Assembly (NCBI GenBank): GCA_963850795.1
Contig: CAWKNS010000043.1
Span: 1,021-65,020, forward strand
Reading direction: 5' to 3'
Source of the DNA: an uncultured Acidobacteriota bacterium
GTDB lineage: Bacteria; Acidobacteriota; Terriglobia; Acidiferrales; UBA7541
Length of the DNA stretch: 64,000 bases
The position numbers and the translations under genes were made by a program. Below are positions 10,551-64,000 of the stretch, in pieces; the stretch's first letter is position 1; every line of letters starts with the position of its first letter. The notes under the pieces are model-generated. The model made no database searches. It saw only the letters and a list, made by a program, of their open reading frames with translations, and was not told where the DNA came from.

Positions 10551-11677
10551 CTATTTTGAGCCCAGTTCAAACGGATGATCGTAACCAGTCATTTCCAGGT
10601 AACCGACTCCGTGAGCATTCGTGTCCGCCATCGTTCCGGTATATGTCACAGATCCCTCCCAGTAGGATGGCGTTAGCGCTCCCGCGCCACTTGTCAATTC
10701 CTGCGAAGGAAGCGGCGTCCGTAGCTCCAGTTCGAGGCCAAAAATCTCGGCACGGAAATTTTCCATTGCACCGGATAAGTTGCCTTCGTCACCGGACTGG
10801 CCCACGTTTGGCCAACCGGTACGAGAGAGAAATCGGCCGGCCGTAAATGTGTCGCTCGTCCGTGCTGGTCGATGATTGTGCGCCGAGGAAAACGGGTCGA
10901 TGGAGCCATCTTTGCGGCGAATGCGAAACAGCATGATTTCCGTATTACCGTCGAGTTGAATGCTGAACCAATCCCAACCGATCTGGTCGCTTTCAAGCTG
11001 ATGCGTGAAGAATTCGTGATCCATCCAAGCCAGCCCGCTGACTTGAAATGATTTTCCGTTCAGCACGATCGTGCCGCTGGTCGCGAGATGCGTCAGCGAG
11101 ATGTAATGCGACGCGTGCCCCGCGCCATCCGCCTTCTGGCTCACGCCGTTCTCTCCCTGAATCACCGGCGGCTTTTCCGAACGCAGCGCCAGTTGCAATT
11201 CAAAGCGCGCATCGGTCGCCCGTAACGATTGCTCGTCGCCCTTCCACTGAATCTGCCAATTCCCATTCCAGATGCGCCCGTCGCTGCTGCTCACTCCCGC
11301 GATGCCCGGTCCGGCTCGATTCGTTCGTTCGGTGTGATAAAAACGTCCGCCATCGAGGTCGCTCAGAGCGAGATGGGCGAGATACAGATCACGTACATCC
11401 CATGCGCCGTTTTTAGACTTGTCGCGATCCACGCCTTGTCGAAAAAAAGTCAGCTCGAATCCGAACCGCCGCCCATCCGCCGCTTTGACGTTGCCCGTGT
11501 AATACCACCACTCCGTCTGATATTCAGGATGATCGAAATGATCGCGACGAAATTCGTAGCGATACCCGGGCAGCGCAACGCTGTATTGCGATTCGCGGGC
11601 AGCTTGCGCGCGAAGGCTAGACAGGCTGCGTCGCAAAAAGCAACGCCAGCGCAAGACCGCGATGCGCTACTCCTCAT
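10551..11677 (-). CDS. AttH-like / CrtC-like lipocalin-domain secreted protein; frameshifted
   Basis: HPEYQTEWWYYTG, FGFELTFFR, WMDHEF, GWDWFS, YWEG, GYLEMTGY. Confidence 0.85.
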
Positions 11678-14284
11678 GCACAACCTCGATCGGATTCAAC
11701 CGAATCGCAACATTCGCGGGATACAGCCCGGCAAGCACCGTCGCGATATATACGAGACTCAGCGCGCCGAGCAGAATCTCCACTGGCCAGTGAAATCGAA
11801 TCGTCCACCCGAACGACTGCTTGTTGATCACAAAAACCAGAATCAGAGAGAGCGCGAATCCCTGCACCACTCCGGCGAGTGTGGCGAGCAAGCCAATCAG
11901 CCCCGCCTCAACCAAAATCAATTTGCGAATCTGCCACGAAGCCGCGCCCAAAAATCGCAGCAGCCCAAGCTCACGCCGCCGATCGATCACCACCGCCAGC
12001 AGCGCCCCCGCGACCCCGATCACGGCAACAATGACCGCGACCGCCTCCAGTGCATACGTAATCGCAAATGTCCGATCGAAAATCATCAACGCCTGCGCGC
12101 GCAAATCGCGATTCGAGAAAATCATAATCCGGTAATTACCCGCAGCCGCCAGGTCTTCGATTTTTCGCCGCACGTTCGTCAGCGAAGCTCCAGGCGACAC
12201 ATAAATTGCGAGACTCGCCGGCGCCGGATCAGGCAAATATTTCAGCGCCGTCGCCCGATCCATCACCACGGTTCCGCGCTCGCTCGAATAGTCGTAGAAA
12301 ACATCGACCACGCGAAAATCCGCTTTGGCGCCACCAAGCGACAGCGTGATCGAATCCCCGCGCTTCACATGATGCTTGTTCGAAAATGGCTCGCTGACAA
12401 CAACCGCATTTGCGCCGCGCATCTCCGCCAGCACGTCTTGCGTCTCGCGGCCCGACATAAAATTTGCCTTGTGATACACCCGCTGCGCGTCGAGCTCCGC
12501 CGACGCGAGCCCAGCCGGCATTCCTTCGTAATTGATCTCGTAATCGCGCAACCGATCCACAGTCGCAACTCCCGGCAGCCGCGCAATCTTGTCCGCAAAC
12601 TCCAGCGTCAGGACCGGATGCCGGTCCGCCGCAGGCACGCCTCCTGCACGCATGTACAAATCGGCTGGCACCTGATCGTTCATCCACAGCAAAACCGTCT
12701 CGCGAAAACTCCCGACCATGATCCCGACCGCCGTCATCATCGCAATCGCCGTCGATAGCGCGCCGACCAAAACCGAAGTACGCCGCAGCGATGCCGACAA
12801 ACTTTGCGATGCAAGTGAAGCCTCGACGCCAAGAATCGCCCCGAGCGCGCGCGTCAACACCCGCATCGTTAGATCGACCACCGCCGGAATCGCCAGCGCC
12901 GACGCCGCGATGACCAGGAGCGTCGCGAGATATCCGAATAGCGGTTTGCCCGCCACAGCAGGCGCGCGCGAAGCAAAAAACGCGCCCAGTGCCAACGCAG
13001 CAGCGATCGCAACATCACGTAACTTGTGTACGCGCGCCACATATTCGCGCCGTCCCCGCGCCATCGCTTCCACCGGCGCCACCAACGACGCCTCCCGCGC
13101 TGGCGCATAAGCCGACGCCACCGCCACTCCGACTCCAACGATCAACGCGAGCACCACAGACTCCGCGCTCAGCGCGATCGCACCCGGCCGGCTACTGACA
13201 TACAGCGCCTCCACCGTCGCCGACATCAACTTCACCGCCCCGCTCGCCATCAATCTCCCGAGCGGCAATCCAATCAACGCGCCAATCAGTCCCGAGACTC
13301 GCAGCTTCGCCAATGAACGCCGCCAAAACCGTCGCGCGATTCGCACCCAACGCGCGCACGATTCCGATCTCCGCGCGCCTCCGCACCACCGAAACCGAAA
13401 TCGTGTTGTAAATCAGAAACGCGCCGACAACGAGCGCGATGTAGCTGAGCAACTTCAAATTCCAGCGAAACGCCGCAAGCATCTTGCGATTTTCTTCCGT
13501 GCCGGTCCCAGCCGCGCGCAATTCCACGCCGTCCGGCAAAATCGCGCCTAGATTTCCGCCAGCGCAACGCCGTGACAACCGCTCTCACCGCCACGAAGCC
13601 GCTGTTGCCACTCGCTCGCGCTCGCAACATGCCCCGACCCGCCATCATCTTTCTCTGGCACTTTCACCAGAATGCGATCGACACGCCCGACTCGCCCGAC
13701 CACCCGCTGCGCCGCAGCCAGATCCATCACAATCGCCGCCGCATTTCCTCCATCATCCGGAAAAACTCCGCGCACAACATAGTCGCGCATCGCGATCGTT
13801 CAATCAGCAGCGCGACCCGATCGCCCGCGTGATAGCCAAGGCTCTGCCCAACCCAAACGCTTTCGTCATCGCCAAGATACTTCAGCGTCTCTTCCGGCTT
13901 CGCCATCGGAAACGCCGACGCCACATCCGAGTGATTCTGCCCCTCCGCCACAAAATCAAGTCCCAGCAGCGGAATCGTCCGCTTCCCATCGATCGCCGCG
14001 TAATCCTCGATTCGCGCCGAAATCCGCAACGAATACGGAAGCTGCGCGAGCTTGCCGACAACGCCCTCCGGCATGCCGCCCGCCGCAACAATTTCGAAAT
14101 CGTTGTCGCCCGAAAGCGTCTCCATCGAAGAGCGAAACGATCCCGCCGCCGCAAATCCCGCGAGATCGATCGCGAGCACCACTGCGACGCCCAGCGCAAT
14201 CGCCAGCACCGTCAGCGACGTCCGCACCGGCTCCGCAAACAGTGGCCGCACCATCAACCGGTAAAATAAAAGTAGCCGCGCCAC
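11667..14284 (-). CDS. FtsX/MacB-like ABC transporter permease (double domain); about 3 frameshifts
   Basis: Joined ORFs 13727-14284, 13548-13790, 13192-13578 and 11667-13346: ALGVAVVLAI, RRAEIGIVRALG, RRRELGLLRFLG, INKQSFGWT. Confidence 0.88.
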
Positions 14285-14961
14285 TATCGACGCTCCACGT
14301 TCTCGATTTTTCCGTCGCGCAATCGCACGACGACATCCGCCAGCGCCGCCGCCTCAGCGCTATGCGTCGCCATCACCGTCGCAGTGTTTTTCTCGCGAGA
14401 CAGTCGCCGCAGCAATTCCAGAATCACGTTCCCCGTCGTCGTATCGAGATTCCCCGTCGGCTCATCCGCCAACAACAATTTCGGCGCATGAATCAGCGCC
14501 CGCGCAATTCCCACGCGCTGCATCTGCCCGCCCGAAAGCTGATGCGGATAGCGATCGCCCAAGCCTTCCAGCTCCACCCATCGCAATCGCTCGAGCGCCG
14601 CCTCCCGAGCATTTGTCTTACCCGCAAGCAACAGCGGCAACTCCACATTCCCCAGCACTGTCAGCGTATGCAGCAACTGAAACGACTGAAAAATAAATCC
14701 AACTTTCTCTCTCCGTAGCCTCGTCAACTCGGCATCGCGCAGCGACGACGTCGCCACTCCATCGAGCGACACACTCCCCGACGTCGGAAAATCCATCGCC
14801 CCAGCCAAATTCAGCAGCGTCGATTTCCCGCATCCACTGCGTCCAACCAATGCGACAGACTGCCCCGCCTCGACATCGAGCGACACACCCTCCAGCGCCC
14901 GTACCGGCTGCCCATCGGTCGAATACTCCTTGCACACATTTTGTAGGGAAAGAATCGGCAT
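14284..14961 (-). CDS. ABC transporter ATP-binding protein (LolD/MacB type)
   Basis: GRSGCGKST, LSGGQ, LLADEPTGNLD, ATH. Confidence 0.95.
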   Translation of the reverse strand: MPILSLQNVCKEYSTDGQPVRALEGVSLDVEAGQSVALVGRSGCGKSTLLNLAGAMDFPTSGSVSLDGVATSSLRDAELTRLRREKVGFIFQSFQLLHTLTVLGNVELPLLLAGKTNAREAALERLRWVELEGLGDRYPHQLSGGQMQRVGIARALIHAPKLLLADEPTGNLDTTTGNVILELLRRLSREKNTATVMATHSAEAAALADVVVRLRDGKIENVERR

Positions 14962-15088
14962 AAATAGGAAGGGCGCAGTCACCCTGAGACACAAATCAAA
15001 ACGTCAAAGGGTTGCCGCGCCCATCTTCTCAATAAGTTGTTACGTTCCCGACAGCAAATCGGATGCGATCGATATCAACGCTCGCGAC

Positions 15089-15646
15089 TTACTTCGCCGC
15101 CAGCGCCTTCTCGATCGCCGCCGTCACTTCCGGCGCATCCGGCGTTACCTTCGGCTCAAACCGCGCCACGATCTGCCCATCGCGCCCGACCAAAAACTTC
15201 GTGAAGTTCCACTGAATCTCGCCGCCCGTCGAAGGATTCGTCGACTTGTCCGTCAAATATTGATACAGCGGCGTCGTGTCGTCGCCCTTCACCGAAACTT
15301 TCGTCGTCATTGGAAACGTCACGTTGTACTTCGACGAGCAGAACGTCTTGATCTCCGCGTTCGTTCCCGGCTCTTGCGCGCCGAAATTGTTCGCCGGGAT
15401 TCCGACGATCACAAATCCCTTGTCCTTGTACTTCTCGTACGTCGATTCCAGCGCCGTATATTGCGGCGTGAATCCGCAGCGGCTCGCCACGTTCACGAGC
15501 ATCACCACTTTGCCCTTGTACGTCCCGAGCGACGTCGGCTGCCCATCGATCGAATTCAGCGTGAAATCGTAAATCGATTTTCCGCCCGCGATTACCGCGG
15601 CAGCGCAAAACAACAAACCAAACACCAACGGCGCAATCATCTTCAT
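15089..15646 (-). CDS. Glutathione peroxidase family protein with signal peptide
   Basis: VNVASRCGFTPQY, PANNFGAQEPG, QWNFTKFLV; GGAGG RBS. Confidence 0.93.
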   Translation of the reverse strand: MKMIAPLVFGLLFCAAAVIAGGKSIYDFTLNSIDGQPTSLGTYKGKVVMLVNVASRCGFTPQYTALESTYEKYKDKGFVIVGIPANNFGAQEPGTNAEIKTFCSSKYNVTFPMTTKVSVKGDDTTPLYQYLTDKSTNPSTGGEIQWNFTKFLVGRDGQIVARFEPKVTPDAPEVTAAIEKALAAK

Positions 15647-15832
15647 CTTCACTTCCTCCCAGTTAGCTTGCGAGTTCGATCTGCTCCGACACAACTTCGG
15701 GCGGCGCATCAATATCAATCGGAGCGAACCCTGCGTGCCCGCAAATACCGATCGCCGGGACGCCGCTGCGTGCCCCCATTCTACGACATTCGCAGGCCTC
15801 CGCGCCCCTTACGCCCACGCGTATCCGTGCCC

Positions 15833-15858
15833 CTCTGCGTCCTCCGCGTCTCCGCGTT
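15833..15858. repeat. Short imperfect tandem repeat CTC(T/C)GCGT x3 (CGCAGAG-type ladder); related ladder in opposite orientation at 29748-29773
   Basis: ctctgcgtcctccgcgtctccgcgtt; ccacagagtacgcagagttcacagag. Confidence 0.5.
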
Positions 15859-16043
15859 GTCTTTTTCTTCTCTTCTTCCCTCTTGCCGCGCGAATTCAAC
15901 CCATTGAGCCCGCCCACCCGCTGTTATAGACTTCGCCGCGCGCAATTTTCGCATCCCAGCTGTAAGCTGCTCGCGGTCAGGGTCGCAAAAACCGCAGCAG
16001 ACATAGTCGCCGTTCGCCGTCACGCCGATTTCACGGAGGCTCG

Positions 16044-17732
16044 ATGCTCCTCGCAGCAGCAGGAGTCGCAGTCACGCACCGGACGCTCGCCCCGGTCGAT
16101 CTCGTCATCATCGGTCTCTACTTCGTACTCGTCTTCGGTATCGGCTTCTATTTCTCGCGCAAAGAGCGCACCTCCGAAGACTACTTCCTCGCCGGTCGCA
16201 ACATCGGTTGGTTCGCCATCGGCGCTTCCCTCTTCGTTTCCAACATTTCCACCGAGCATTTCATCGGTCTCGCCGGCTCAGGCGCGACCTCCGGACTCGC
16301 CGGCGGAAATTTCGAGTGGCAAGCCTCCTGCATCCTCCTGCTCCTCGGCTGGGTCTTCGTTCCCTTCTATCTGCGCTCCAACGTTTTCACCATGCCCGAG
16401 TTTCTCGAGCGCCGTTTCAATCGCAACTGCGCCACATATCTCGCCGGAATTTCGATCATCGCGTACATCTTCACCAAAATTTCCGTCCATCTTTACGCCG
16501 CCGCGATCGTGCTCGAGCGCGTCGTCGGCTGGAATCAGTGGACCGCCGCGATCATCCTCGTCGTCGCCACCGGCATCTACACGGTCGCCGGCGGACTCGC
16601 CGCCGTCATTTACACCGATCTTGTCCAAACGCTGATCCTGCTGGCTGGCGCGATCGCGCTCACGTTCATCGGCCTCGATAAAGTCGGCGGCTTCAGCGCC
16701 CTGCGCGCCGCCGTGCCTGCCAGCTACTTCCACATGGTGAAGCCAATCAGCGATCCCGATTTTCCATGGACTGGAATTTTCTTCGGTGCTCCCATCATCG
16801 GCATCTGGTACTGGTGTACCGACCAAGTCATCGTCCAGCGTGTGCTCTCCGCAAAAGACGAAGGCCACGCAAAAGCCGGCACGATTTTCGCCGGATTTCT
16901 AAAGATACTCCCCGTCTTTCTCCTGGTGATTCCAGGAGTGATTGCGTTCGCCCTCTATCCGCAACTCTTTCACATCGAAAATGGCGCGGTCACGAACGGC
17001 GATATCGCATTCCCAACCGCTGTGGTGAATTTGCTTCCCACCGGTTTCGTCGGCCTGATGGTCGCCGCACTGCTCGCCGCCTTGATGGGCGCCATGAGTT
17101 CGGTGTTCAACTCCACCTCAACGATGGTCACGCTCGACTTCTACAAAAAGTTCCGCCCGGCGGCGACCGAGAAGCAGCTCGTCACCTTCGGCCGCATCGC
17201 CACCGCCGCGATGGTCGTGCTCGGTTTGCTCTGGGTGCCGTTCATTCACCTACTCAGCGCGCAGCTCTGGGTCTACCTGCAAAGCGTGCAGGGTTACATC
17301 AGCCCGCCGATCGCCGTCTGCTTTATCTTCGGAATTTTGTGGCCGCGCCTCAACGGAACCGGCGCGATCACGACCTTGCTTGCCGGCTTCGTGATGGGCG
17401 CCGGACGCTTCGTCTTCGAAGTGCTCGACAAATCCGCGCACTATACTTCGCCCTTCCTCCGCTGGCTCGTGGACATGAACTTTCTCCACTACAGCATCCT
17501 GATGTTCGTCGTCTGCGCTCTGATCTTGATCGTCGTCAGCCTGATGACGCCCGCGCCCGACCGCAGCAAACTCGCCGGCCTTACCTTCGCCACGGTTGAC
17601 GACAAAATCGAAACCATCGACGTCAAAAAAGTAGACCTGGCCCGAGAAACCCGCACCGAACACAAAATCAACGTCGCACTAACTTACGTCTTGCTAGCCA
17701 CCTGCCTGATCCTCTGGATCTATTTCCGCTAA
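16044..17732 (+). CDS. Sodium/sugar symporter (SSS, vSGLT-like)
   Basis: YFLAGR, SNISTEHFIGLAG, TMPEFLERRF, WYWCTDQVIVQR. Confidence 0.94.
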   Translation: MLLAAAGVAVTHRTLAPVDLVIIGLYFVLVFGIGFYFSRKERTSEDYFLAGRNIGWFAIGASLFVSNISTEHFIGLAGSGATSGLAGGNFEWQASCILLLLGWVFVPFYLRSNVFTMPEFLERRFNRNCATYLAGISIIAYIFTKISVHLYAAAIVLERVVGWNQWTAAIILVVATGIYTVAGGLAAVIYTDLVQTLILLAGAIALTFIGLDKVGGFSALRAAVPASYFHMVKPISDPDFPWTGIFFGAPIIGIWYWCTDQVIVQRVLSAKDEGHAKAGTIFAGFLKILPVFLLVIPGVIAFALYPQLFHIENGAVTNGDIAFPTAVVNLLPTGFVGLMVAALLAALMGAMSSVFNSTSTMVTLDFYKKFRPAATEKQLVTFGRIATAAMVVLGLLWVPFIHLLSAQLWVYLQSVQGYISPPIAVCFIFGILWPRLNGTGAITTLLAGFVMGAGRFVFEVLDKSAHYTSPFLRWLVDMNFLHYSILMFVVCALILIVVSLMTPAPDRSKLAGLTFATVDDKIETIDVKKVDLARETRTEHKINVALTYVLLATCLILWIYFR

Positions 17733-17737
17733 CCATC

Positions 17738-18408
17738 ATGCACACCAATCTCAACATCCGCAGACCAAGGTCATGTAGGGGCGCAGCCCGCTGCGCCCCA
17801 GCTTGCCCGGACGTCAACGCCAGAATTCTTTCTTCGATCCACACGCTAAAATCGAAAGTCTCCCAATCCGACGCGTTCCGAAAATTCTCCGCCGCCGGCC
17901 CCGCCTGCGCTACTTCGCAATCTCCGCCTCGGCCCACTCCAACGCATCGCCGAGGTCTACGTCCCCTTCCACCTCTACCGCGTCAACTACGATCTCGGCC
18001 GCGAGCACCAATCCCGCCTCTTCGCCATCGATGCCGTCCAAGGCACCCTCGATCTCTTCGAATTCCCCGCCATCCCCAAACAAGACGAACTCGTGCAGAT
18101 CGAAACAAAAAACGCTCTGCCCGTAAAACTGAGTGACGCCGACAGCCGAAAATCTCCTGCGCGAAAAAGTCCTCCGCATAGTCTTCCAACAAGGCTTCTT
18201 CAAATTGCGCGACGCAAATCTCACGATCGAACGCCTCCCGCTCGACTTGCACCTCTCCTACTGGCTCGCCTTCCACGGAAAAGAATCAGCCGCAATTGGC
18301 GCGCGCGTTGCCACAAGCACCGTCCGCTGCCGCGTCCTCGACTCCACCCGCAACCGCATCGAAGGCGCCAAAGCCACCGCCCTCTTCGAATCCTGGCTCT
18401 CCGCGTAA
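17738..18408 (+). CDS. Hypothetical protein, frameshifted; putative N-terminus overlaps a REP
   Basis: Protein-like segments across frames with C-ending codon bias: ...RIAEVYVPFHLYRV...IDAVQGTLDLFEF...LREKVLRIVFQQGFFKL...IEGAKATALFESWLSA. Confidence 0.65.
17775..17818 (+). repeat. GTAG-type REP, family A (GTAGGGGCGCAGC-N-GCTGCGCCCC plus tail)
   Basis: Near-identical copies at 18433, 20484 (+) and 26959, 29791, 30421, 35273 (-). Confidence 0.85.
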
Positions 18409-18432
18409 ACATGCAGCATCGCGCCCGCTTTT

Positions 18433-18477
18433 GTACGGGCGCAGCACTGCTGCGCCCCAGCTTGACCGGGCGTCAGC
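18433..18477 (+). repeat. REP family A
   Basis: gtacgggcgcagcactgctgcgccccagcttgaccgggcgtcagc. Confidence 0.85.
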
Positions 18478-18501
18478 ACCTGCACAGTCTGTTTTGAATT
18501 T

Positions 18502-20544: not shown

Positions 20545-20547
20545 CAG

Positions 20548-21234: not shown

Positions 21235-21249
21235 CAAGAAATCTCCCTG

Positions 21250-35307: not shown

Positions 35308-35324
35308 ACGATCGCGATATCCGA

Positions 35325-55171: not shown

Positions 55172-55531
55172 ATGACCGGAGAATTTATAGGCCTCGTCGC
55201 TGTAATCCTCACCTGCGGCATCCCTGTCGCTGGCATGTACACCTATTATCAGGTTCGCAAACTCCGCAGCCAGGAACGCCTCGCCGCCATCGCGCGCGGC
55301 GTCGAAATCCCCATGGCCGCCGAACTCCCCGAGTCCGCCCGCTCCCGCCGCGCCGGCATCCTGCTCTGCGCCGGAGCCATCGGCTACATCATCACCTTCG
55401 GCTTAATCGCCCAAATCGCGCGCGACTCCGACACCTGGATCGCCGCCTCTTTCGGCATCATCCCCCTCGCCGTCGGCATCGGCTATTTCCTCGACTACAG
55501 CCTGATCCGCCGCGACGCCAGCGCCAGCTAG
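55172..55531 (+). CDS. DUF6249-like membrane protein
   Basis: TM, ERLAAIARG, then two TM (GIIPLAVGIGY); AAGGAG RBS. Confidence 0.75.
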   Translation: MTGEFIGLVAVILTCGIPVAGMYTYYQVRKLRSQERLAAIARGVEIPMAAELPESARSRRAGILLCAGAIGYIITFGLIAQIARDSDTWIAASFGIIPLAVGIGYFLDYSLIRRDASAS

Positions 55532-55568
55532 TCCGCTCGATCCTGTTCGTATTTTCGCGTTTGTCTAG

Positions 55569-55592
55569 GTGGGCGGGCCTCGGCCCGCCCAC
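55569..55592. terminator. GC-rich hairpin (terminator or REP-like)
   Basis: gtgggcgggcc-tc-ggcccgcccac. Confidence 0.55.
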
Positions 55593-55761
55593 TGCTGTTA
55601 TTGCGCATCAGCCGGGCTTATCTCGGCCCCGCGATGAAGTTTTTCGCTCAAGTTAGGGCAGACACCCTGTATGCCCTAACCATAAATACTTCTTTGCTTA
55701 TAACAACCCAGTTTCTTCACCCCAAATACTAAAATCCGAACATCCCAATGCGGCGGGTCTC

Positions 55762-58700
55762 GTGGAATTTTTCCCGTTCTTATTAATCGGGCTGTTCATT
55801 CTCTTCGGCCCATGGATTCTCGTATTGCGCGCGAGTCGCGACCGCAAACTCGAACGTGAGGAAGATCTTGACCGTTGGCGGGAACTTTCCCAGCGAGTCG
55901 TCGCGCTCGACGGTAAGGTTAAGGAACTTCAAAATCGTGCAGTGGGGCCCGTCGCGCCACCAGTCGACGCACAGCCTCCTGTTGCGCCGCGCGCGACGAA
56001 GACCGCAGCCAACCCCTGCACCATCGCCCGTCGCCCCTGCCATTCCTGCGAAACCGCCCATTCAGCAGCAACAACCCGCGCAGCCGCCAAAGAGTTCTCC
56101 CATCGTTTCGCCGACACCTCCCGCCGAACAACCGAAGCGCTCTCCTGCCGCCTCGCCAACACAGCCTCCCGGCGTGCGACCTCCTTCTCCCACGCCTGTT
56201 CGCCCGCCAACGTTCTCTCCCATCACCGAATCTTCCGCCTCGCCCGACCGCCCAACCCGGTCCTCGCACGATCTCGAAGAAATCCTCGGCACCAACTGGC
56301 TCAACAAACTCGGCATCGTCATCCTCGTTCTCGGCGTCGCCTTCTTCCTCGCCTATCAACTTAAGACGTTAGGCCCCGTCGGCAAGGTTTTGGTCGGATA
56401 CGTCGTCAGCGGCACCCTTCTCGGCGCTGGCGTCTGGATGGAACGCCACAATCGTTATCAGATTCTCGCGCGAACTGGCATCGGTGGCGGATGGGCGCTT
56501 CTGTTCTTCACGACTTACGCGATGTATCACGTCCCCGCCACGCAAGTTCTAAATTCACAGATCGTCGATCTGCTGCTCATGTTCGCGGTCGCCGCCGTCA
56601 TGGTGTGGCATACGCTGCGCTACCGCTCCCAAGTCGTCACCGGCTTGGCATTCCTTCTCGCTTCTCTCACCGTCACGATCAGCCATTCGAATGTTTACAG
56701 TTTGTCGGCTGGCGCGATCTTGGCTGCCGGTCTTAGTCGTCATCGTTGGTCGCATGCAGTGGTTCGAACTCGAAGTCGTCGGCATCCTCGCGAGCTATCT
56801 CAATCACTACCTATGGTTGCGCCCGATCATTGAACCGATGGAGGGCCATCACCGCCCGTTTCCGCAATTCGCCGCCAGTGCCGGAATACTCGTCCTCTAC
56901 TGGCTCATCTTTCGTCTCTCCTATCTTTTCCGAAAGCCCGACGACGAAAGAAAAGAGCACCTCTCAACAGCCGCCGCTTTGCTCAACACCTTGCTCCTCC
57001 TGCTGCTCTTCAAATATCAATCGGTCCATCCCGAATGGTCCTTCTGGGCGCTGCTGGCCATCGGTGCGATCGAAACCTCTCTCGGACAAATTCCCATCGC
57101 CAAGCGTCGCCGCTCCGCCGTCATCGTATTGACCACCATCGGCACCGTCTTGATGGTTGCAGCCTTCCCGTTCCGCTACTCAGGAACGCGCCTCTCGCTG
57201 TTCTGGATCGCCGAAGCGGAAGCTCTGCTCTTAATCGGAGTCTGGACTCGCGAAATTGTATTCCGCCGTTTGGGAGCCATCGCCGCCGTCCTCGCCGCAG
57301 GCCAAATGATTTCTTTCGACGCCGCCAGCGTGTACGGAGCGCGCTCGGACAATGCGTATCTCGCCAGCGAACCTCGCATCGCCATTCTTTTCGCCGTCGC
57401 CGGCGCAATCTTCTACGCAAACGCGCACTGGATCGCGCGCCGCTGGAGCGATCTGTTCGAATATGAAATCGACCAGACCGTCATGGCGCGCTTCTCTTAC
57501 CTCGGCGCCTTCATGGTTTTCACCGGCGCCTGGATTCTCTGCCCCGAAGCATCGACGGCAGTGGCGTGGGCTTCCCTAGGTTTGGCGCTCGCGCTCGCAG
57601 GTCGCCGCTGGAAAATCCTCGACCTCGGCTATCAGGCGAACTTCGTTGCGACGGCCGCGCTGTTTCGCACCGTCATCATCAACTATGAGATTACGAGCAA
57701 ATTTCATGGCGTCAGCGAAAGACTGCTTTCGATTTTGCTGGTCGCCGCTCTTCTCTACATCACGTCGCGCTGGAGTTGGCCCGAGGAGGACACGGAGCGG
57801 CTGACACTCGCCGATACTCCCTATTCCGTTCGCGCCGTAGTTGGCGGCGCCTACACCTGGGCAGCATCCTTCTTGCTAGCTCTGTTGGCGTGGTACGAAC
57901 TGCGGCCCGTCAGCGTAGCTGTCGCTTGGATGCTCGGCGGCCTCCTCTTGTTGGAGATCGGCCTAAGCCGAAAGTCTCTCCAGCTCCGTGTCCAGGCCTA
58001 CTTCGCACTCATCGCCGCGTTCTCACGCATCTGGTTCGTCAATCTCGACGCCTCCGGCATCCCCGGTGAAGTTAGCCCGCGCTTCTACACCGTCGTACCC
58101 CTCGTCCTCGCGTTCTACTACGCATATTGGAGGCTTCGAAACGCCCCCGACGAACTCACTCCGTCCGAGGGCAAGTATCGAGCCGCCGAATTCTGCTGCT
58201 GGCTCGGCACGATCTCCTTCGCTGCACTGGTCCGCTTCGAAATGCCAGCCGACTGGGTTGCCGCTGCTTGGGCCGCGCTCGCCCTAGCTTTACTTTTGAT
58301 CGCCTGGAGAAGTACTCAACGTCTCTTCCTGCATCAGGCGCTGCTCGTCGTCGCCGGAGTCTTGGCGCGCACGTGCTTGCACAATTTTTACGAGCGAAGT
58401 TATTTCCCCGCACCGGTCTGGCAGAGCCGCTGGGTCTGCGTCGGAACAACGGTCGCCTTGCTCCTCGTCGCCCTGCCCATCCTCTTTCAATTGCGAATCA
58501 AAGATTCGGCGGAACTGCCTTCAGCGCCCGTGCCTCGACTCCTCTCTCTCATGAATCGTCGCCCGGAACAGGTTTTCTTTTTCGCCGCTATCACTCTACT
58601 CACGGTTTTGCTCGGCTTGGAAATGCGCCACGGGATGGTCACGCTCGCCTGGGGTTTGGAAGGCTCGGCAATCTTTGTGCTGGCGATAAAAGAACGCAGC

Positions 58701-58877
58701 TTCCGTCTCACAGGACTTGGCTTGTTGTTGCTTTGCGTCGTCAAGATCATCGCGATCGATGTCTGGCGGCTCAATCCTCGCGACCGCTATCTCACTTTCA
58801 TCGTCCTGGGCGCCGCTCTCTTGCTGGTTTCATTCCTCTACACGCGCAATCGGGAAGCGATACGGCAATACATATGA
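55762..58877 (+). CDS. DUF2339 domain polytopic membrane protein; 2 frameshifts
   Basis: TM, coiled coil, Pro-rich linker, LEEILGTNWLNKLG, many TM, RYLTFIVLGAALLLVSFLY. Confidence 0.85.
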
Positions 58878-60577
58878 AGCGCTGGATAACACTAACGGCA
58901 ATTCTTGTTCTCGGCGTGGCCGCCATAGTCTTTGCGGAGCGTCGCAAGGTGGATTCCGAGGCGAGCGCTGCCGCGATTTTAAATCTCGTTGCCGACACCG
59001 AGCATGAACTCACCCGCATGCCGGTCCGTTTCACACGCATGTCCGATGGAGATGAAATTCGCGCCGGCAATGACCTCGCTAAAGGCTACTTCCCGGATCG
59101 CAACGAGAATCCTTCGGACGACTTCACGCGCATTCAGTCATACCTCAATCAAGTAGGCGCGCCGCTCGCACAACGGGCACACCGTAAACTTCCCTACAAA
59201 TTCCACTACATCTCCGACAAAAATTTCGTCAACGCGTTCGCCCTGCCCGGGGGACATGTCTTCGTAGGCGCAGGCATGCTCGCGCTGATGGACAGCGAAG
59301 ACGAACTCGCCGCCGTGCTCGGCCACGAGATCGAACACATCGATCACTATCACTGCGCCGAGCGCCTCCAGACTGAGCAAGCGATGCGCAAAATTCCGTT
59401 GGCCGAGTTAGTGACTCTTCCCGTCGCGATTTTCCAGGCGGGTTACAGCAAAGAGCAGGAGTTGGAAGCCGACCGTGAAGGCACGCGGCTCTCCGTCGAA
59501 GCAGGTTATTCCGCGACTGGCGCGATCCGCCTCTTCGAACGCTTTCAGCGTCTCTACGACGAGACTCACACGAAGGCCAAAACCCCGCAGGATGAAATCT
59601 CTCAAGTCGCGATCGACACGCTGGAAGGCTATTTCCGCTCGCATCCTCTGTCATCCGAACGTATCGCCCAAATCAACCAATTGATTGCCAGTTCGTCCTG
59701 GCCAAACCGACCGGAACGCGACTTGGTCATCGCCGACATTTTCTGGACCGAGAAAGCCGAGGAGGCCTTGCGCCAGGGCCAATATCCGCAAGCGCAGCAA
59801 TTGGCAGCGCAAGCTGCGAAGATCCATGCATATAGGAAGACTCTCGAGATATTGGCCCAGGCACAATTCCTTCAGGCCGATTTCACCGGTGCCGCAGCGA
59901 CTTACCGCAAAATTCTCGACGGAGATGTTTGGTCCCCCGATCTCGCCTACTCCTACGCTTGGTCGCTGGCCGCGTCGCATCAACAAGGCGCAGCAAATGA
60001 GTTTCAACGCTGGATCGCGTTACTGCCTGGCGATACGACATCGCTGCAAGTGCCGCGGGTTGGCCTTTTGTTGATCGCCGGAGATCCTGCTCCCGCTCGC
60101 CGCTCGGAGACGGACCTTCTCGCCCAAATTATTACGAGTAATTCGGGCCCAGAGCTTCTCTCCGACCTGAGTTGGTGGTGGTATTTGGCCAAAGACAATT
60201 CGAACGCCGCGAAGCTCCAGAAGGAAGCGATCCAGCGGCGCCCCGGCAACCTTCGCATGCTCATCCGCATGGCCTGGATCGACATCGACCAGGGGCGCTT
60301 GGCCGATGCCTTCGAAGCAATCGTGCGAGCGGACCAAATCGAAGTCGCCCACGAAGCAGTTTCCGAAAAAATGATGGCCGCCGCAGTGGAACGCTGGCAA
60401 GCTCACGAAACAGACACCGCTCTTCTCGGCTTCGACCGCGCAATCTCTCATCACCCGGAATGGACAAACCCTAATTGGGTCGCAAGCCTCTACTCTCCGC
60501 TCGTCGCTCAAAGCATCCAGCAGATGCAAGCCGAGAGCGATCGCCGGAAGAAGACCAAAGCGAAATCGGCCGGCTAG
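58874..60577 (+). CDS. M48 family metalloprotease with C-terminal TPR-like region
   Basis: ATGA overlap; VNAFALPGG, ELAAVLGHEIEH, ELEADREG, SHP. Confidence 0.92.
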   Translation: MKRWITLTAILVLGVAAIVFAERRKVDSEASAAAILNLVADTEHELTRMPVRFTRMSDGDEIRAGNDLAKGYFPDRNENPSDDFTRIQSYLNQVGAPLAQRAHRKLPYKFHYISDKNFVNAFALPGGHVFVGAGMLALMDSEDELAAVLGHEIEHIDHYHCAERLQTEQAMRKIPLAELVTLPVAIFQAGYSKEQELEADREGTRLSVEAGYSATGAIRLFERFQRLYDETHTKAKTPQDEISQVAIDTLEGYFRSHPLSSERIAQINQLIASSSWPNRPERDLVIADIFWTEKAEEALRQGQYPQAQQLAAQAAKIHAYRKTLEILAQAQFLQADFTGAAATYRKILDGDVWSPDLAYSYAWSLAASHQQGAANEFQRWIALLPGDTTSLQVPRVGLLLIAGDPAPARRSETDLLAQIITSNSGPELLSDLSWWWYLAKDNSNAAKLQKEAIQRRPGNLRMLIRMAWIDIDQGRLADAFEAIVRADQIEVAHEAVSEKMMAAAVERWQAHETDTALLGFDRAISHHPEWTNPNWVASLYSPLVAQSIQQMQAESDRRKKTKAKSAG

Positions 60578-60625
60578 CGCACTTCAAATCGGGAACCAAC
60601 CACTCACGGGGGGTGTCTATTGGGC

Positions 60626-61861
60626 GTGAGACTTCTCTTTGTTCTCAGACTCGCCTTGACTGTGTGCGTTGCAGCTATCCCTATCGGTCCAGCGTTTGCG
60701 TGTCAATGCTCTGCGACCTACTTCGATGCCAACCCTGGATGGGACGCGGCCAGGCTTGAGACTGACGGGTCGACAGCGATTTTTGAGGGCACACCGGAAC
60801 ACTTCGAACTGCTGTGGAGTGTCCTCAGTGCGAACGTTGGTGCGTGGATTCCCACGGAAAACTATAGTGCGTCCCGATCTCACCGACTCCCCAAAGATGC
60901 TTGTGACGTTTCGAGTACTCAGAACTTACAAAGGAGATTTGGGCCGGAAATAAGAATTGAAACCGGTCTAGGCGGAGGAGACTGTGGCGCGGTGTACGCG
61001 CCGGGTCTCACATATCTAATTTTCACGCGCAGTTCCCCTTCCGGGGTTCCCGGCGTCAGCATGTGCAGCCCGGGCGGCTGGATCGGAAATGCGCATCAAG
61101 CAGTCGAATTGCGTTACCTCAGGAAAGAGCGCCCAATCGCCAGTGATTTGAAGCCACCGCGTCGGTGGAACCCTAAACAGTACGCAGCGCAGCAGGAAGA
61201 AAGAAAGAGCGACTACGAAGAATACGAAAAGCGCTATTCGGCCGTGACAGGCGAAATTTGTGGAAAGGTCACTGCCGAAAACGCGAAAGGCGGCAACGCT
61301 GGGATCATTTCGTTTCTCTTCGCCGGAGGCTTCTCGCCGTATGCGGCACCCATGATGAACGTCGGCGCAGACGGTTCATTTTGTTCAGGGCGGCTTGGAC
61401 CGGGAAAATATTTCTTGTATTTCAATGGGCACACGGATGACGACCCGACTTACGCGGCTTACTATCCGGGGGTGGCAGGCAGAGAAGAAGCAGCGACGAT
61501 CGAGGTCCATGCCGGCGAAAACTTGTCGGGGATTACGTTCAACGTACCCACTCAGAAGACCTACTCGGTGCGAGGCATACTTTCAATCTACGACAGTGCG
61601 CGAACAGGCGACCATCGAACGTCCCTCGAGCTGGTAAGTTTGGATGCAGTCGCCTTCCCGATCATGCGACGCTTGAATATCGATTTCGAAGGCTCATCCG
61701 CTCTTCCGAAAATTAAGTATTTTCACTTCGAAAACGTGCCCCCAGGTCGCTACACGGCCTATGTCTCGATGCTCGGTAAAGAATGGCACACAAGGAAAAA
61801 AGAAATAGACGTAACCGATCACATGAAGTTCATTTCGCTCGAGTTGATGCATCAGAAGTAG
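60626..61861 (+). CDS. Secreted protein: TIMP/NTR-like N-domain plus carboxypeptidase-regulatory-like beta-sandwich repeats; compensating frameshifts near 60880-60945
   Basis: AFA|CQC, AIFEG, alternate-frame FRVLRTYKG, TGLGGGDCG, YLIF, MCS; LGPGKY, YYPG, VPPGRY. Confidence 0.7.
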   Translation: MRLLFVLRLALTVCVAAIPIGPAFACQCSATYFDANPGWDAARLETDGSTAIFEGTPEHFELLWSVLSANVGAWIPTENYSASRSHRLPKDACDVSSTQNLQRRFGPEIRIETGLGGGDCGAVYAPGLTYLIFTRSSPSGVPGVSMCSPGGWIGNAHQAVELRYLRKERPIASDLKPPRRWNPKQYAAQQEERKSDYEEYEKRYSAVTGEICGKVTAENAKGGNAGIISFLFAGGFSPYAAPMMNVGADGSFCSGRLGPGKYFLYFNGHTDDDPTYAAYYPGVAGREEAATIEVHAGENLSGITFNVPTQKTYSVRGILSIYDSARTGDHRTSLELVSLDAVAFPIMRRLNIDFEGSSALPKIKYFHFENVPPGRYTAYVSMLGKEWHTRKKEIDVTDHMKFISLELMHQK

Positions 61862-61936
61862 CGTTAGAAGAGTCGAGCGGCCTGAATCTAACCTTCTCAC
61901 CAGGACGCTCGAATCCGTGTGCTACCATAGCCCTTC

Positions 61937-62710
61937 ATGCATCCGGCAATTCCTCGCCTCATCGACCTCCAAACCATCGATCTGAAGATCGCCGAATTCC
62001 GCGCCCAACTCGAAGCTTTTCCGAAGCGAATCATGGCCCTCGATCACAAGCTGACCGACGCGCGCACGGCCGTCGCCTCCGCCAAAGAGGCTCAGGTCAA
62101 TTCGCTCAAAGAACGAAAGAAATTTGAGCTCGACGTCGAGCAATGGAAAGAACGCGCGCGCAAATATCGCGACCAGAGTGGCGCAGTCAAAACCAACGAA
62201 GCCTACAAAGCGCTCCAGCACGAAATCGCTAACGCCGAAGCCGAAGTCTCCAAGGCCGAAGATCGCCAGCTTGAACTCATGATGGGCAGCGAAGAGATCG
62301 ATGCTCGCTTTCGCCATGCCGACGCCGATCTGAAAGAAGCCGAAAAATCCGTCGCCGGCGACCGCAAGGAAGTCGAAGTCCAATACGGCGCAAAAAAGAA
62401 AGAGCTTGCCGCCGCGCTAGCCGAGCGCGAAAAAGCCGTCACGCCCATTCCCGAAGATATGCTCGTCCTCTACGACCGCGTCGCCAAACGCCACAACGGT
62501 CACGCGCTCGCACAGGTCAAAGACGGCCAGTGCAAAGGTTGCGGTCTGCGCGTCCTTCCGCACACGCTGCAACTGCTCACGCAGGATCACGACGACGAGG
62601 AAGTCTTCCGCTGCGAAAGCTGCGGCCTGATTTTGTATTCGCTCGAACCGCTGACTGCAATTAATACCGACTCTGCTCCGGGCAACGCCGCTTCTGCCAC
62701 AATTACCTGA
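61937..62710 (+). CDS. C4-type zinc-ribbon coiled-coil protein (DUF164/CT398-like)
   Basis: LQTIDLKI, long coiled coil, CKGC...CESCGLILY. Confidence 0.92.
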   Translation: MHPAIPRLIDLQTIDLKIAEFRAQLEAFPKRIMALDHKLTDARTAVASAKEAQVNSLKERKKFELDVEQWKERARKYRDQSGAVKTNEAYKALQHEIANAEAEVSKAEDRQLELMMGSEEIDARFRHADADLKEAEKSVAGDRKEVEVQYGAKKKELAAALAEREKAVTPIPEDMLVLYDRVAKRHNGHALAQVKDGQCKGCGLRVLPHTLQLLTQDHDDEEVFRCESCGLILYSLEPLTAINTDSAPGNAASATIT

Positions 62711-63428
62711 TGCCAAAACGCCCATCACCACCCGAAGGCGCACGCCTGTTCGGCGACGCCGCAACTGACTCGAAGCCTGCCGCGACGACTGGTACTGCTC
62801 CACACCGCGCTAACATCGACGGCGGCTCGCGTGGCAATCCTGGTCCCGCCGCATACGGCGTCGTTATCCGTGACCCGAAGGGCGAAATCGTCGCGCGCCT
62901 GAAAAAATTCATCGGCCGCATGACCAACAACGTCGCCGAGTACTACGGTTTGATCGCCGCGCTCGATTACGTCGAGTCGCAAGGCATTCGCGCCCTGCGT
63001 ATCGAGAGCGACTCCGAACTTCTCGTCAAACAGATGAAGGGGCTCTACAAAGTTCGCAGCGAGGAACTCGCGCCGCTTTTCGAGCGTGCAAAGAAAATGG
63101 CTCTGCGCTCGATTCCTTCCGCATCGATCACGTCTACCGCGAACACAACCGCGAAGCCGACGCTCTCGCCAACCAGGCCATGGACGAAGTCGAAGGCCCC
63201 GACGCAAAGCCCCGCGGCGAAAGAGGCAGCCCAAAGGTCGCCGCGCCAAGCGCAAACGCCGCATCGCCTGCGGTTACGCCAAAGGCGCAGCCACCATCTC
63301 AACTTCCCAGCGACGTCCGCAAAATCCGCGCCCGCTACCGCAGCGGCGTCCTCTACTTACTCGAAGATCTCGAAATGCCCGACGGCATCGAAATCGACAT
63401 CTTGCTAAAACTCCCCCGCAAATCCTGA
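62710..63428 (+). CDS. Ribonuclease HI family protein; frameshifted
   Basis: IDGGSRGNPGPAA, TNNVAEY, SDSELLVKQM, alternate-frame HVYREHNREADALAN. Confidence 0.9.
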
Positions 63429-63559
63429 CGGAGTCACGCCTTCACACGAAACGCTCCGCCATCACCCAGCATCACACCAAGAGGCGCGCCGCACCCCCGT
63501 CTCGGCAAACTCGATCCGCGACTTGTACCCGCGATCGCTTCCCAGATCGCGGGGTTTAG

Positions 63560-64000
63560 ATGCAACGAAACTCGGACCAACTCGACGTGCACCCAACTCG
63601 ACCCATCTCCGCGTCAGCTTCAACGCAACGCCACCGTAAGCTCTCCGTAATAAAAATATTCTCGCTAGTGATATTTCTCTTCATCGCAGGAATCACAACC
63701 GCCGACACCCTCTATTACCACCACATCTTCTTCGACAACAGCCTCGAACACGACGCCTACTTCTACAGCTCCGGCAACGCCTCCGCCCCCAGCTCTCTCA
63801 ATCTCATCCACGGCAAACTCCCCGTTGAAACAAAAGTTTTCTACACGCCTCCCAACGCCCTCCGCCTCGAATGGACCTCCGCCCGCACCGGCGGCTGGGA
63901 CGCCCGCATCGACGTGATGCGTTTCCGCGATCGCGAAATCAATTTCATCGGTGGCAATCTTTTCTTCTGGTGTTACTCGCCAGACGGTATCCCCGCCCGC
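63560..64000 (+). CDS. Secreted protein, probably glucoamylase-family/GH144-like N-terminus; runs off the window
   Basis: Open frame from ATG 63560: signal-like segment, then YYHHIFFDNS...FYTPPNALRLEW...GGW. Catalytic domain not visible. Confidence 0.55.
   Translation, partial: MQRNSDQLDVHPTRPISASASTQRHRKLSVIKIFSLVIFLFIAGITTADTLYYHHIFFDNSLEHDAYFYSSGNASAPSSLNLIHGKLPVETKVFYTPPNALRLEWTSARTGGWDARIDVMRFRDREINFIGGNLFFWCYSPDGIPAR

Follow-up and report, generated by a model that had tools for sequence, protein, structure and literature searches.

Alternating G/C Strand Asymmetry Tied to Chromosomal Position in an Uncultured Soil Acidobacterium and Its Genus

Sequence comparisons indicate that the chromosome of an uncultured soil acidobacterium of the Terriglobia ('Acidoferrales'/UBA7541-like; genome G000), like those of its genus, is under an ongoing strand-asymmetric substitution pressure that is tied to chromosomal position. 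This pressure disregards gene direction, is re-established after rearrangement, and slightly moves even the positions that determine amino acids. Polarity is mirror-imaged around about 90–100 anchor zones that recur about every 45 kb; it is strongest within about 10 kb from the zone and reaches zero about halfway to the next one. These skew domains are not explained by any pattern of replication, transcription, or rearrangement known from bacteria.

Skew Domains in the Window

In the window, i.e., the whole stretch of 64,000 nucleotides that was analysed, the GC skew of the + strand was calculated in 1-kb windows. It amounts to +0.19 at 0–1 kb and to about 0 at 3–11 kb, and is then negative in a C-rich half-domain (10,900–21,300) where it ranges from -0.15 to -0.33 (11–21 kb) and where C-richness grows toward an upward (C-to-G) switch. 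Through the zone of this switch (19,000–25,500) the skew climbs as a ramp of about 6 kb that crosses zero at about 21.0–21.6 kb; at neutral sites, in 500-bp bins, the skew passes from -0.68 (18.5–19 kb) through -0.04 (21–21.5 kb) to +0.74 (25–25.5 kb), the GC skew of the + strand being +0.01 to +0.09 at 21–25 kb, and neither an AT-rich tract nor DnaA boxes were seen in the zone. The G-rich half-domain that follows (21,600–43,000) peaks at 25–35 kb (+0.19 to +0.38) and then declines, with values of +0.11 to +0.23 at 35–43 kb and of some +0.1 to +0.2 by 36–43 kb. The downward (G-to-C) transition (43,000–50,500) is gradual, with skew near zero and lower GC; within 7 kb the skew drops from +0.05 to -0.10, and the successive gene-level values are +0.20, +0.03, -0.12, and -0.17. 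From 50 kb on the skew of the + strand is negative again, in a C-rich half-domain (50,500–59,000; -0.09 to -0.25) and a C-rich stretch (62,000–64,000; -0.11 to -0.27) preceding the next upward switch, which is located at C43:66.3 kb, just beyond the end of the window.

The initial annotation of this DNA had claimed that the G/C skew flips in blocks independently of gene direction and that synonymous codon endings follow the DNA strand. Both claims hold, and the flips are stronger than described, the skew persisting at fourfold-degenerate sites (±0.5–0.97) rather than vanishing there. On the + strand the fourfold skew is -0.35 to -0.70 at 11.6–21.3 kb, +0.46 to +0.97 at 23.6–37.5 kb, and -0.39 to -0.87 in the half-domain at 50,500–59,000, in each case with the same sign in + and - genes; in particular, it is +0.77 in gatB (27,106–28,590, - strand) and +0.68 in the + strand gene at 33,476–34,747. 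Codon positions 1+2 show little skew, and the shift inside and between genes is gradual in 500-bp bins. Three of the base counts given for single lines were recounted and proved exact (13,081, C29/G13; 32,101, G33/C7; 54,781, C32/G11). Of the 'G(T)-rich' description of the central block, the excess of G stands and that of T is weak: the overall composition of G-rich strands is A 0.195 and T 0.215, and A/T skew at fourfold sites is absent (-0.01 and +0.09).

Genome-Wide Pattern

Along the 5.05-Mb genome the skew switches upward about 91 times and downward about 80 times. The median spacing from one upward switch to the next is 45 kb, and the strands swap between G-rich and C-rich every 20–25 kb or so. 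The standard deviation of the skew is 0.16, against a sampling noise of about 0.03 per 2-kb window. Per-gene fourfold skew has a standard deviation of 0.42 and a mean of only -0.017 when referred to the coding strand; the + strand fourfold skews of neighbouring genes on opposite strands are correlated (r = 0.65), as is intergenic skew with that of the flanking genes (r = 0.84).

In gene-level plots the shape tends to a sawtooth, in which skew is 0.7–0.9 beside upward switches and decays over 15–25 kb. The median transition width is 4.75 kb for upward versus 9.25 kb for downward switches, and jumps between adjacent genes number 31 at +0.8 or more versus 15 at -0.8 or less; this asymmetry is thus moderate. 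The downward crossing lies close to the midpoint between two upward switches (0.53 ± 0.14 of the interval), and 20 zero-skew runs of at least 10 kb are present.

Orientation of REP Elements

REPs are present as many short, extragenic palindromes, with 27–90 copies per family; those of families A and F start with GTAG or GTAC. For each of ten REP marker k-mers, orientation is locked to the local skew in at least 95% of cases (Fisher p between 1e-7 and 1e-22); for the family-A elements of the window the rule rests on counts of 49 versus 2 and 34 versus 1. By family, the REP-like repeats agree with the local skew to 97% or more, those of the family flanking the RAYT gene included. At least eight distinct families follow this one rule, which holds 14 to 0 in the sister species G001. 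The elements cluster in high-skew zones near upward switches, where they leave no step in the profile: the skew is +0.34 on the upstream and also on the downstream side of a REP, and the paired differences average +0.027.

The window provides examples of both orientations. Three family-A REPs on the + strand, starting at 17,774, 18,432, and 20,483 (TGTAGGGGCGCAGC.. or TGTACGGG..; 17,774–20,509), and a family-E marker on the same strand (TCCCAGATCGCGGG; 63,540–63,553) have the orientation of C-rich blocks, and seven REPs of families C, A, and R on the - strand, starting at about 26,256, 26,991, 29,792, 30,422, 32,741, 35,274, and 38,254 (26,256–38,300), have the opposite one, as in G-rich blocks. 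A family-R copy on the + strand (TGGGAGGGCACGACTTCAGTCGTGCC; 21,248–21,273), found by reading the sequence and by pattern search, lies at the zero crossing; the same 26-mer forms the perfect 26-nt inverted repeats flanking an ORF with a Y1_Tnp domain, of RAYT type (C21:829.2–829.8 kb; L144:1929–2207).

According to a passage of PMC3971601 that cites Ton-Hoang 2010, single-strand transposons of the Y1 enzyme class insert in an orientation that depends on which of the two strands is exposed in single-stranded form at the fork. All REP-type families insert by the same polarity, and they are reporters of the asymmetry, not its cause.

Substitution Signature

REP orientation was used as an independent classifier of the predicted G-rich strand, on which fourfold sites contain 0.54–0.57 G, 0.22–0.23 C, and about 0.11 each of A and T. 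Relative to this strand 685 genes are co-oriented and 683 anti-oriented, with no gene-strand bias, and their skews are 0.40 and 0.44, respectively. Among polarised substitutions of the G000 lineage, C>G exceeds its complement 3.3-fold, A>G 2.3-fold, T>G 1.55-fold, and C>T 1.2-fold, and C↔G changes account for roughly 40% of all substitutions. Absolute skew climbs with fourfold GC content (0.72 to 0.855, rho = 0.49), the GC of codon positions 1+2 remaining flat; polarity displaces the latter positions by only about 0.065, a derived value. One strand is pushed toward G at freely varying sites, mainly by C→G with the addition of A→G and T→G. No single motif emerges from the oriented k-mers that stand out: they are pieces of REPs or reflect codon context.

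In Caulobacter, G:C→C:G and A:T→C:G changes require imuB and imuC (reviewed in PMC3901139), and the spectrum of this ImuA-ImuB-DnaE2 (ImuC) mutasome resembles the →G/→C signature described here. An imuB-dnaE2 cassette was found in G000 and in the sister species G001 and G010, and an imuB orthologue in 10 of the 19 genomes of the genus; with the same query imuB was not found in the strongly skewed G012 (97% complete), nor in G008 and G005 (94–97% complete). The ImuABC/DnaE2 cassette is common in bacteria without such skew. A causal role would call for the cassette in every strongly skewed genome, and is not supported by these results of the query.

Conservation among Related Genomes

The relatives compared were the collinear sister species G001 and G010, together with G005, G008, and G012. 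The pattern of the window is the same in G001 (r = 0.92) and G010 (r = 0.91), despite divergence from the sister species at 35% of the fourfold sites in common. The switches at 21.3 kb and 43–50 kb sit within gene orders that are collinear in both, and the gene adjacency spanning the former is also retained in G005 and G008; the switch points are neither inversion nor chimera breakpoints. In G012, G008, and G005 three genes are inverted relative to gatB and their coding-strand skew has changed from about -0.8 to +0.3 to +0.6, which indicates that genes truly inverted elsewhere have re-equilibrated to the local polarity. An additional upward switch lies within a collinear stretch of G010; anchor zones turn over among species with no insertions visible.

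Anchor Zones and Replication Landmarks

At the anchor zones no motif, DnaA-box cluster, or AT-rich dip was found, and DnaA boxes with at most one mismatch never exceed two per 500-bp window. The dnaA gene (C28:130.6 kb) is located within a uniformly C-rich stretch; there is no switch at the canonical position upstream of it, the nearest upward switch being 10 kb off, past gyrA. Among tRNA genes 11 are co-oriented and 5 anti-oriented with the polarity, a difference that is not significant. In G000 and G001 the 16S gene points toward the upward switch closest to it (anti-oriented), and in G010 it points away from that switch (co-oriented). Ordinary replication forks are disfavoured by the orientation of the 16S gene and by the missing gene-strand bias; a 16S orientation that differs among genomes would not be expected of any process that meets transcription on a regular basis.

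Possible Origin of the Asymmetry

On balance we lean, with a confidence somewhat better than even, toward an asymmetry that marks the strand repeatedly left single-stranded, or copied in an error-prone manner, during synthesis outward from the anchor zones. DNA synthesis or single-strand exposure would begin in about 100 such zones and proceed in both directions, candidate processes being local replication initiation or synthesis that depends on recurring breaks, nicks, or recombination. A polymerase that inserts C where the template base of the exposed strand is damaged or absent could produce the →G signature. An exposed strand usually loses C, and the outward direction is deduced from this rule, which may fail for a C→G process. 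Several findings count against local synthesis: the zones lack a motif, their ramps are several kb wide, and they turn over without insertions; gene-strand bias is missing, the 16S gene is oriented as described, and no switch precedes dnaA; moreover, the sawtooth is only moderate, the tRNA bias non-significant, and the amplitude at fourfold sites much higher than in known replication skews.

A more specific form, in which members of the genus would copy their chromosome from about 100 dispersed, motif-less initiation zones at intervals of about 45 kb, as their regular mode or as a frequent alternative one (for example, recombination- or R-loop-primed replication), appears quite unlikely. If it were true, fork direction would alternate along the chromosome in a eukaryote-like manner, and the sawtooth skew with the flipping REP orientation would be a fossil record of fork polarity.

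Among the alternatives to outward synthesis, the one that survives best, unlikely as it is, places hotspots of recombination or breakage at the anchor zones, with repair that is biased between the strands. Recurrent breaks or nicks would be resected, exposing opposite strands on each side, and heteroduplex or gap repair would favour G on one of them, the outcome being a conversion bias rather than a mutation bias, with silent-site GC also raised. The joint rise of absolute skew and fourfold GC over flat positions 1+2 is what a conversion-like drive toward GC should produce; the mirror symmetry, the decay over 15–25 kb, the zone turnover, and the lack of relation to transcription all fit, and resection would offer REP/RAYT elements a single strand of opposite polarity on each side. 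However, 3'-tailed resection with loss of C (or gain of G) predicts sharp G-to-C switches, whereas the sharper and stronger ones here are C-to-G; no nuclease site or Chi-like oriented motif emerged beyond REP fragments and codon effects, and the dominant C↔G class is unlike the products of known G/T or G/A mismatch glycosylases.

It is very unlikely that REP/RAYT elements drive the asymmetry themselves, by oriented nicking followed by one-directional strand displacement or repair synthesis, with like-oriented clusters making up the blocks. The near-absolute orientation lock, the enrichment near upward switches, and the existence of a RAYT-type gene whose flanking REP is copied at the zero crossing of the window would suit this role; however, the skew is continuous at REPs, and a single rule for unrelated families fits an external shared cue better than a shared activity. 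Furthermore, none of the G000 marker k-mers occurs in the G010 stretches sampled, where the skew pattern is present, and no Y1_Tnp match was found in G001 (93% complete).

Selection rather than mutation, keeping one strand G-rich for function in units of about 45 kb (polar translocase-steering sequences or structure-forming G-runs), is highly improbable. In other bacteria strand bias is known for polar G-rich motifs (for example, KOPS and Chi), and domain positions are conserved among close species; against this, nearly every silent G/C site is affected, with skews of up to 0.9, intergenic DNA is biased as well, positions 1+2 hardly move, the asymmetry is visible in substitution rates, and the standout k-mers hold no single oriented motif.

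The initial annotation had left a choice between very frequent inversions and a local strand-specific mutational or DNA-synthesis process acting over tens of kb; the second is supported as far as sequence can tell, and the first is not. A mosaic of many inversions on a strong ordinary replication skew would explain the blockwise change of sign and the sharpness of some downward switches (the 15 jumps mentioned above), but it is scarcely credible because the switches lie in collinear gene order, with breakpoints not coinciding with them, the transitions are ramped and of graded amplitude, no gene-strand bias travels with the blocks, and the pattern survives the silent-site divergence and re-forms in inverted genes. 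Finally, transcription-associated asymmetry or an assembly or sequencing artefact has a negligible probability: G000 apparently has the frameshifts typical of a long-read MAG (mutS, dinB, imuB, and dnaE2 are split), but skew is equal in co-oriented and anti-oriented genes and its sign does not track the coding strand, it is carried by silent sites of open reading frames, indel errors are incapable of G/C substitutions, and the pattern recurs in independently assembled genomes of other species.

Comparison with Known Systems

The skew described here reaches 0.9 at fourfold sites, which is far beyond any replication skew of which we are aware. It shares with the GC skew of bacterial replichores the binding to a strand, the presence in silent and intergenic sites, and the orientation bias of single-strand-dependent mobile elements (PMC3971601). 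Replichore skew, in contrast, has two switches, at oriC and the terminus, versus about 170 here in 5 Mb, and an amplitude that is constant rather than graded; it consists of an excess of G and T linked to C→T, whereas here C→G dominates and silent sites have no excess of T over A; its genes, especially those for rRNA and tRNA, are co-oriented with the G-rich leading strand; and its upward switch is at dnaA/oriC.

Human skew N-domains are sawtooth-shaped and reflect gradients of fork polarity between initiation zones (PMC3320577, PMC4729899). The upward jump, the gradual fall, the zero midway, and the broad, motif-less ramps resembling initiation zones are all paralleled here, but N-domains extend over about 1 Mb versus about 45 kb, and the amplitude found here is an order of magnitude larger; the present case differs also in being a bacterium with one dnaA and in its long zero-skew plateaus.

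The REP/BIME and RAYT systems (TnpA-REP, Y1 HUH) and IS200/IS605 elements have in common with the elements described here the GC-rich short palindromes, some with a 5' GTAG head, in many extragenic copies, the Y1_Tnp gene between inverted REPs, and an orientation bias tied to strand asymmetry. In the known systems this orientation flips once each at ori and ter, whereas here it flips every 20–25 kb or so, with a lock that is nearly absolute and common to at least eight families.

Strand Skew in the Window and Across the Genome

How a chromosome is copied is normally read from its strand skew, which in bacteria is taken to reflect one origin and one terminus. In the window, recomputation of the skew bears out the positions of the C-rich and G-rich blocks described in the initial annotation, and the three of its hand counts that were recounted are all exact. 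Its claim that silent positions follow the DNA strand also stands at fourfold-degenerate third positions, where the skew of G against C, the measure adopted here, persists and is about three times stronger than overall. In particular, the + strand fourfold skew is -0.35 to -0.70 in every gene, on either strand, at 11.6-21.3 kb, and +0.46 to +0.97 in every well-called gene at 23.6-37.5 kb, while codon positions 1+2 are almost unshifted; the few per-gene outliers are short ORFs, probably mis-called. The change from C-rich to G-rich on the + strand (upward switch; the reverse is a downward switch) is a ramp that extends over about 6 kb, with its centre near 21.0-21.6 kb. Skew is zero at 8000-11000, 43000-50000, and 60000-62000, where total GC is 0.52-0.57 versus 0.59-0.63 in the skewed stretches, in agreement with the rise of absolute skew with silent-site GC over the whole genome.

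Across the metagenome-assembled genome (MAG) under study (G000), the standard deviation (SD) of 2-kb skew is 0.16 versus about 0.03 expected by sampling. Among 3,179 genes, fourfold skew has an SD of 0.42 and a mean of -0.017 in coding-strand terms; in + strand terms, neighbouring genes on opposite strands have correlated skews (r = 0.65), and intergenic skew follows that of the flanking genes (r = 0.84). Segmentation gives 91 upward and 80 downward switches, positioned to about ±1-3 kb, with a median distance between upward switches of 45 kb. In gene-by-gene plots the absolute skew reaches 0.7-0.9 on both sides of upward switches and decays away from them across 15-25 kb to a gradual zero crossing, so that the overall shape tends to a sawtooth. 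The median transition width is 4.75 kb for upward and 9.25 kb for downward switches, jumps between adjacent genes of at least +0.8 outnumber those of -0.8 or below (31 versus 15, p = 0.026), and the downward crossing falls at 0.53±0.14 of the interval between upward switches. Unskewed plateaus account for 20 runs of at least 10 kb. In the full-text literature searched, no description of this pattern was found for Acidobacteriota or other bacteria.

Substitution Signature

The orientation of short palindromic repeats (REPs), used as a strand classifier free of base composition, predicts a G-rich strand on which fourfold sites contain 0.54-0.57 G, 0.22-0.23 C, and A and T at about 0.11 each. This composition is alike in 685 co-oriented and 683 anti-oriented genes, indicating neither A/T skew nor gene-strand bias; these data also put the shift that the pressure causes at codon positions 1+2 at about ±0.065. 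Absolute skew climbs with silent-site GC (0.72 to 0.855; rho = 0.49), with GC at positions 1+2 remaining flat, and G therefore increases at the cost of C, A, and T. The direction of substitutions was read from 85 orthologue triplets comprising G000, the same-genus genome G001, and the congener G010 as outgroup. In the G000 lineage, C>G exceeds its complementary class 3.3-fold, A>G 2.3-fold, T>G 1.55-fold, and C>T 1.2-fold, ratios that are probably understated, parsimony being rough at this divergence; C↔G transversions make up about 40% of all polarised changes. Along the G001 lineage this pressure is less strong.

Comparison with Related Genomes

Assemblies made independently for eight congeneric species, sampled across 60-220 kb per genome, contain the skew blocks, with 2-kb SDs of 0.09-0.16; the corresponding values are 0.06-0.09 in two sister-family genomes, and at the GatB loci of other Acidobacteriota, each a single locus, the 1-kb SD is mostly 0.04-0.06, with a few higher. 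Per-gene silent-site skew in the window correlates with that of G001 (r = 0.92) and G010 (r = 0.91). Since 35% of the fourfold sites shared by G000 and G001 differ, the pattern is being maintained and is not simply a legacy of common descent. The synteny check proposed in the initial annotation indicates that the switches are not scars of rearrangement such as inversion breakpoints.

Three genes at 28803-31003 of the window are inverted relative to gatB in the congeners G012, G008, and G005, and their coding-strand skew passes from about -0.8 to between +0.3 and +0.6, matching at the DNA level the new surroundings. In G005 and G008 the gene adjacency at the 21.3-kb switch is kept, yet no switch is present there. 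G010 has an additional upward switch where gene order is collinear; it lies between topA and a gene for an aminotransferase fusion, and dprA is truncated exactly at this point: the gene beside topA in G000 (C43:117541-118669, excised locus L143) is full length (375 aa, with DNA_processg_A and DprA_WH domains), and its remnant in G010 (C10:114946-115527, locus L138) is a 193-aa ORF with the winged-helix domain only. On these comparisons, the zones around upward switches (anchor zones) are stable between close species and turn over between more distant ones.

REP Repeats and Their Orientation

For each of ten asymmetric marker k-mers belonging to REP-like families A, B, C, D, E, F, and G, at least 95% of the copies agree in orientation with the local skew (for example 49 versus 2 and 34 versus 1; Fisher p 1e-7 to 1e-22), and G001 obeys the same rule 14 to 0. 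G-rich markers occur on C-rich strands and the opposite case is also found, so base composition does not account for the rule. REPs have a median absolute skew of 0.195, versus 0.115 across the genome, and lie closer to upward switches, the median gap at a polarity flip being 9.4 kb for upward and 21 kb for downward ones. At C21:829185-829778 (L144:1685-2280) a Y1_Tnp ORF is enclosed by perfect 26-nt inverted REPs (TGGGAGGGCACGACTTCAGTCGTGCC, family R), which is the arrangement of RAYTs, the Y1 transposase-like REP-associated enzymes. About 27 family R copies are spread across the genome and, by hand comparison with the skew profiles, follow the same orientation rule; in the window one copy lies at 21248-21273, at the zero crossing of the skew, and another at about 32741. 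A second Y1_Tnp ORF (284 aa) is located at 192 kb of contig C38 among different inverted repeats of 34-44 nt.

No skew step is observed at REPs or at the elements of family H, a second type of repeat; the possibility that REPs launch the skew was consequently set aside, and the repeats are read as reporters of the asymmetry. They are similar in this to single-strand transposons, whose orientation is known to depend on which strand is single-stranded at the fork (PMC3971601). REP orientation is thus usable as an independent polarity marker.

Sequence Features of the Anchor Zones

Around the 91 upward switches (±1.5 kb) no enrichment of an 8-, 10-, or 12-mer remains significant once the 15,348 tests made are allowed for (best p = 1.5e-5), the sole lead being family H. 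DnaA boxes (TTATCCACA, with at most one mismatch) are not enriched at switches and do not cluster anywhere in G000, no AT-rich dip occurs at switches, and the k-mers oriented beyond base composition are REP fragments and codon-context effects only, with no Chi- or KOPS-like candidate. The cumulative-skew extremes at upward switches are intergenic in 45 of 91 cases versus about 29% by chance, and between convergent genes in 14 of 91 versus 5%; the intergenic excess is weak evidence because REPs and terminators are also located there.

Family H is a repeat of about 150 nt, with 66 copies in G000 (examples are loci L100-L109 and C28:141715-141870), that contains a pair of CTTGCGCACTC boxes spaced by about 60 nt, as well as a GGGGGTATACCCCC hairpin with TCCCAAAATGGGAAC after it. 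Within 5 kb of an upward switch lie 60% of the copies, versus 20% by chance; they are orientation-locked as REPs are, aimed at the upward switch, usually from one side only, and present at 34 of the 91 upward switches. One copy directly follows gyrA, 10 kb from dnaA. No copy occurs in the window, where Rfam matches are also absent; family H itself matches nothing in Rfam, and its conserved RNA folding is limited to two small hairpins.

Origin of the Skew

A local strand-specific process acting over tens of kb, one of the two alternatives of the initial annotation, is supported at the level of sequence, the skew being strand-bound, transcription-independent, and rebuilt after inversion. Any such process has to act on a specific strand regardless of transcription, mirror its effect at fixed zones, reach over about 20 kb, and impose an orientation on single-strand-dependent repeats. 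These properties would follow if DNA synthesis began in the anchor zone and proceeded outward in both directions: the exposed strand (lagging-template or displaced) would be the + strand to the right of the zone and the - strand to the left, and a polymerase inserting C opposite damaged or lost bases of this strand would convert A and T, and also C by way of uracil or abasic sites, to G, leaving G untouched. A C-inserting polymerase would fit the observed substitution spectrum, and the broader reading, in which anchor zones are where outward DNA synthesis begins or single strands become exposed, is slightly favoured as the best explanation. The signature resembles the ImuB/ImuC-dependent spectrum of Caulobacter, in which G:C→C:G and A:T→C:G changes require imuB and imuC (PMC3901139). 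An imuB-dnaE2 cassette is encoded in G000, G001, and G010; however, the search for imuB orthologues gave hits in just 10 of 19 congeneric genomes and none in the strongly skewed G012, and ImuB-DnaE2 was rejected as a required factor, the gene not being found in several skewed genomes.

The main rival is conversion bias at recombination hotspots, which accounts for the rise in GC and for anchor-zone turnover but, with the usual resection polarity, predicts a sharp switch of opposite direction, and is considered unlikely. Replication of the chromosome from many origins would recall the skew N-domains and fork-polarity gradients of human chromosomes (PMC3320577, PMC4729899), to which the sawtooth is similar. 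The absence of gene-strand bias, however, argues against ordinary forks, as do the tRNA genes, which are not clearly co-oriented with skew and lie in weak-skew zones more often than expected (27 of 43 versus 40%, p = 0.003), the single dnaA, whose upstream side has no switch, and the conventional appearance of sister-family genomes. Moreover, the single 16S rRNA gene faces the nearest upward switch in G000 (C32:217659-219188) and G001 (C5:626983-628512) and faces away from it in G010 (C11:243527-245056). On these points many-origin replication is judged quite improbable. Very frequent inversions, the other alternative of the initial annotation, are contradicted by the collinearity of G001 and G010 across the window and most of contig C43; an assembly artefact is ruled out by the recurrence of the blocks in independent assemblies, and transcription as a cause by the equal composition of co-oriented and anti-oriented genes.

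About 100 mirror-image skew domains in a free-living soil bacterium and its genus, with extreme silent-site amplitude, an unusual C→G signature, and mobile elements oriented almost perfectly on the same map, imply either multi-site starts of DNA synthesis or a mutagenic or repair process that is strand-specific, strong, and local and is as yet undescribed for bacteria. Skew-based origin prediction and MAG assembly checks would wrongly call these genomes scrambled, and gene location affects codon usage and, slightly, amino-acid usage.

Genome Context and Minor Observations

G000 is a 5.05-Mb MAG in 43 contigs, and the window corresponds to C43:1021-65020; G001 and G010 are assembled into about 10 contigs. 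In G000, 3,941 genes were called by a codon-usage model, a heuristic of our own. The lineage, also named UBA7541, is known in the literature from soil MAGs only; among public contigs the nearest relatives of the window GatB belong to uncultured Terriglobia labelled Acidoferrales or Acidiferrales (at most 79% identity), and within the genus identity is 94% in G001 and 88% in G010. The completeness score is only 64% for a 5-Mb assembly, and mutS, a dinB-like gene, imuB, and dnaE2 (C4:5750-6305, C21:450531, and C10:123568-128340, locus L146) each lie in at least two frames, with longer open frames in G001 and G010; together these suggest that the frames are broken by indel errors, as expected of a long-read MAG, and that the genes are not true pseudogenes. 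In particular, mutS is present and its split over two frames is probably due to assembly indels.

The contig-level gene-strand fraction, compared with contig-level neutral skew in search of one global replication direction, gives rho = 0.26 (p = 0.17). No 23S gene occurs within ±20 kb of the 16S gene, and the rRNA genes are therefore unlinked. It may be that strongly expressed or conserved loci escape the skew pressure or withstand it; a tRNA cluster on contig C34 (Thr-Tyr-Thr-Gly-Trp) sits in a weak-skew region. A tRNA-SeC gene is located at C31:66421, and the organism probably uses selenocysteine.
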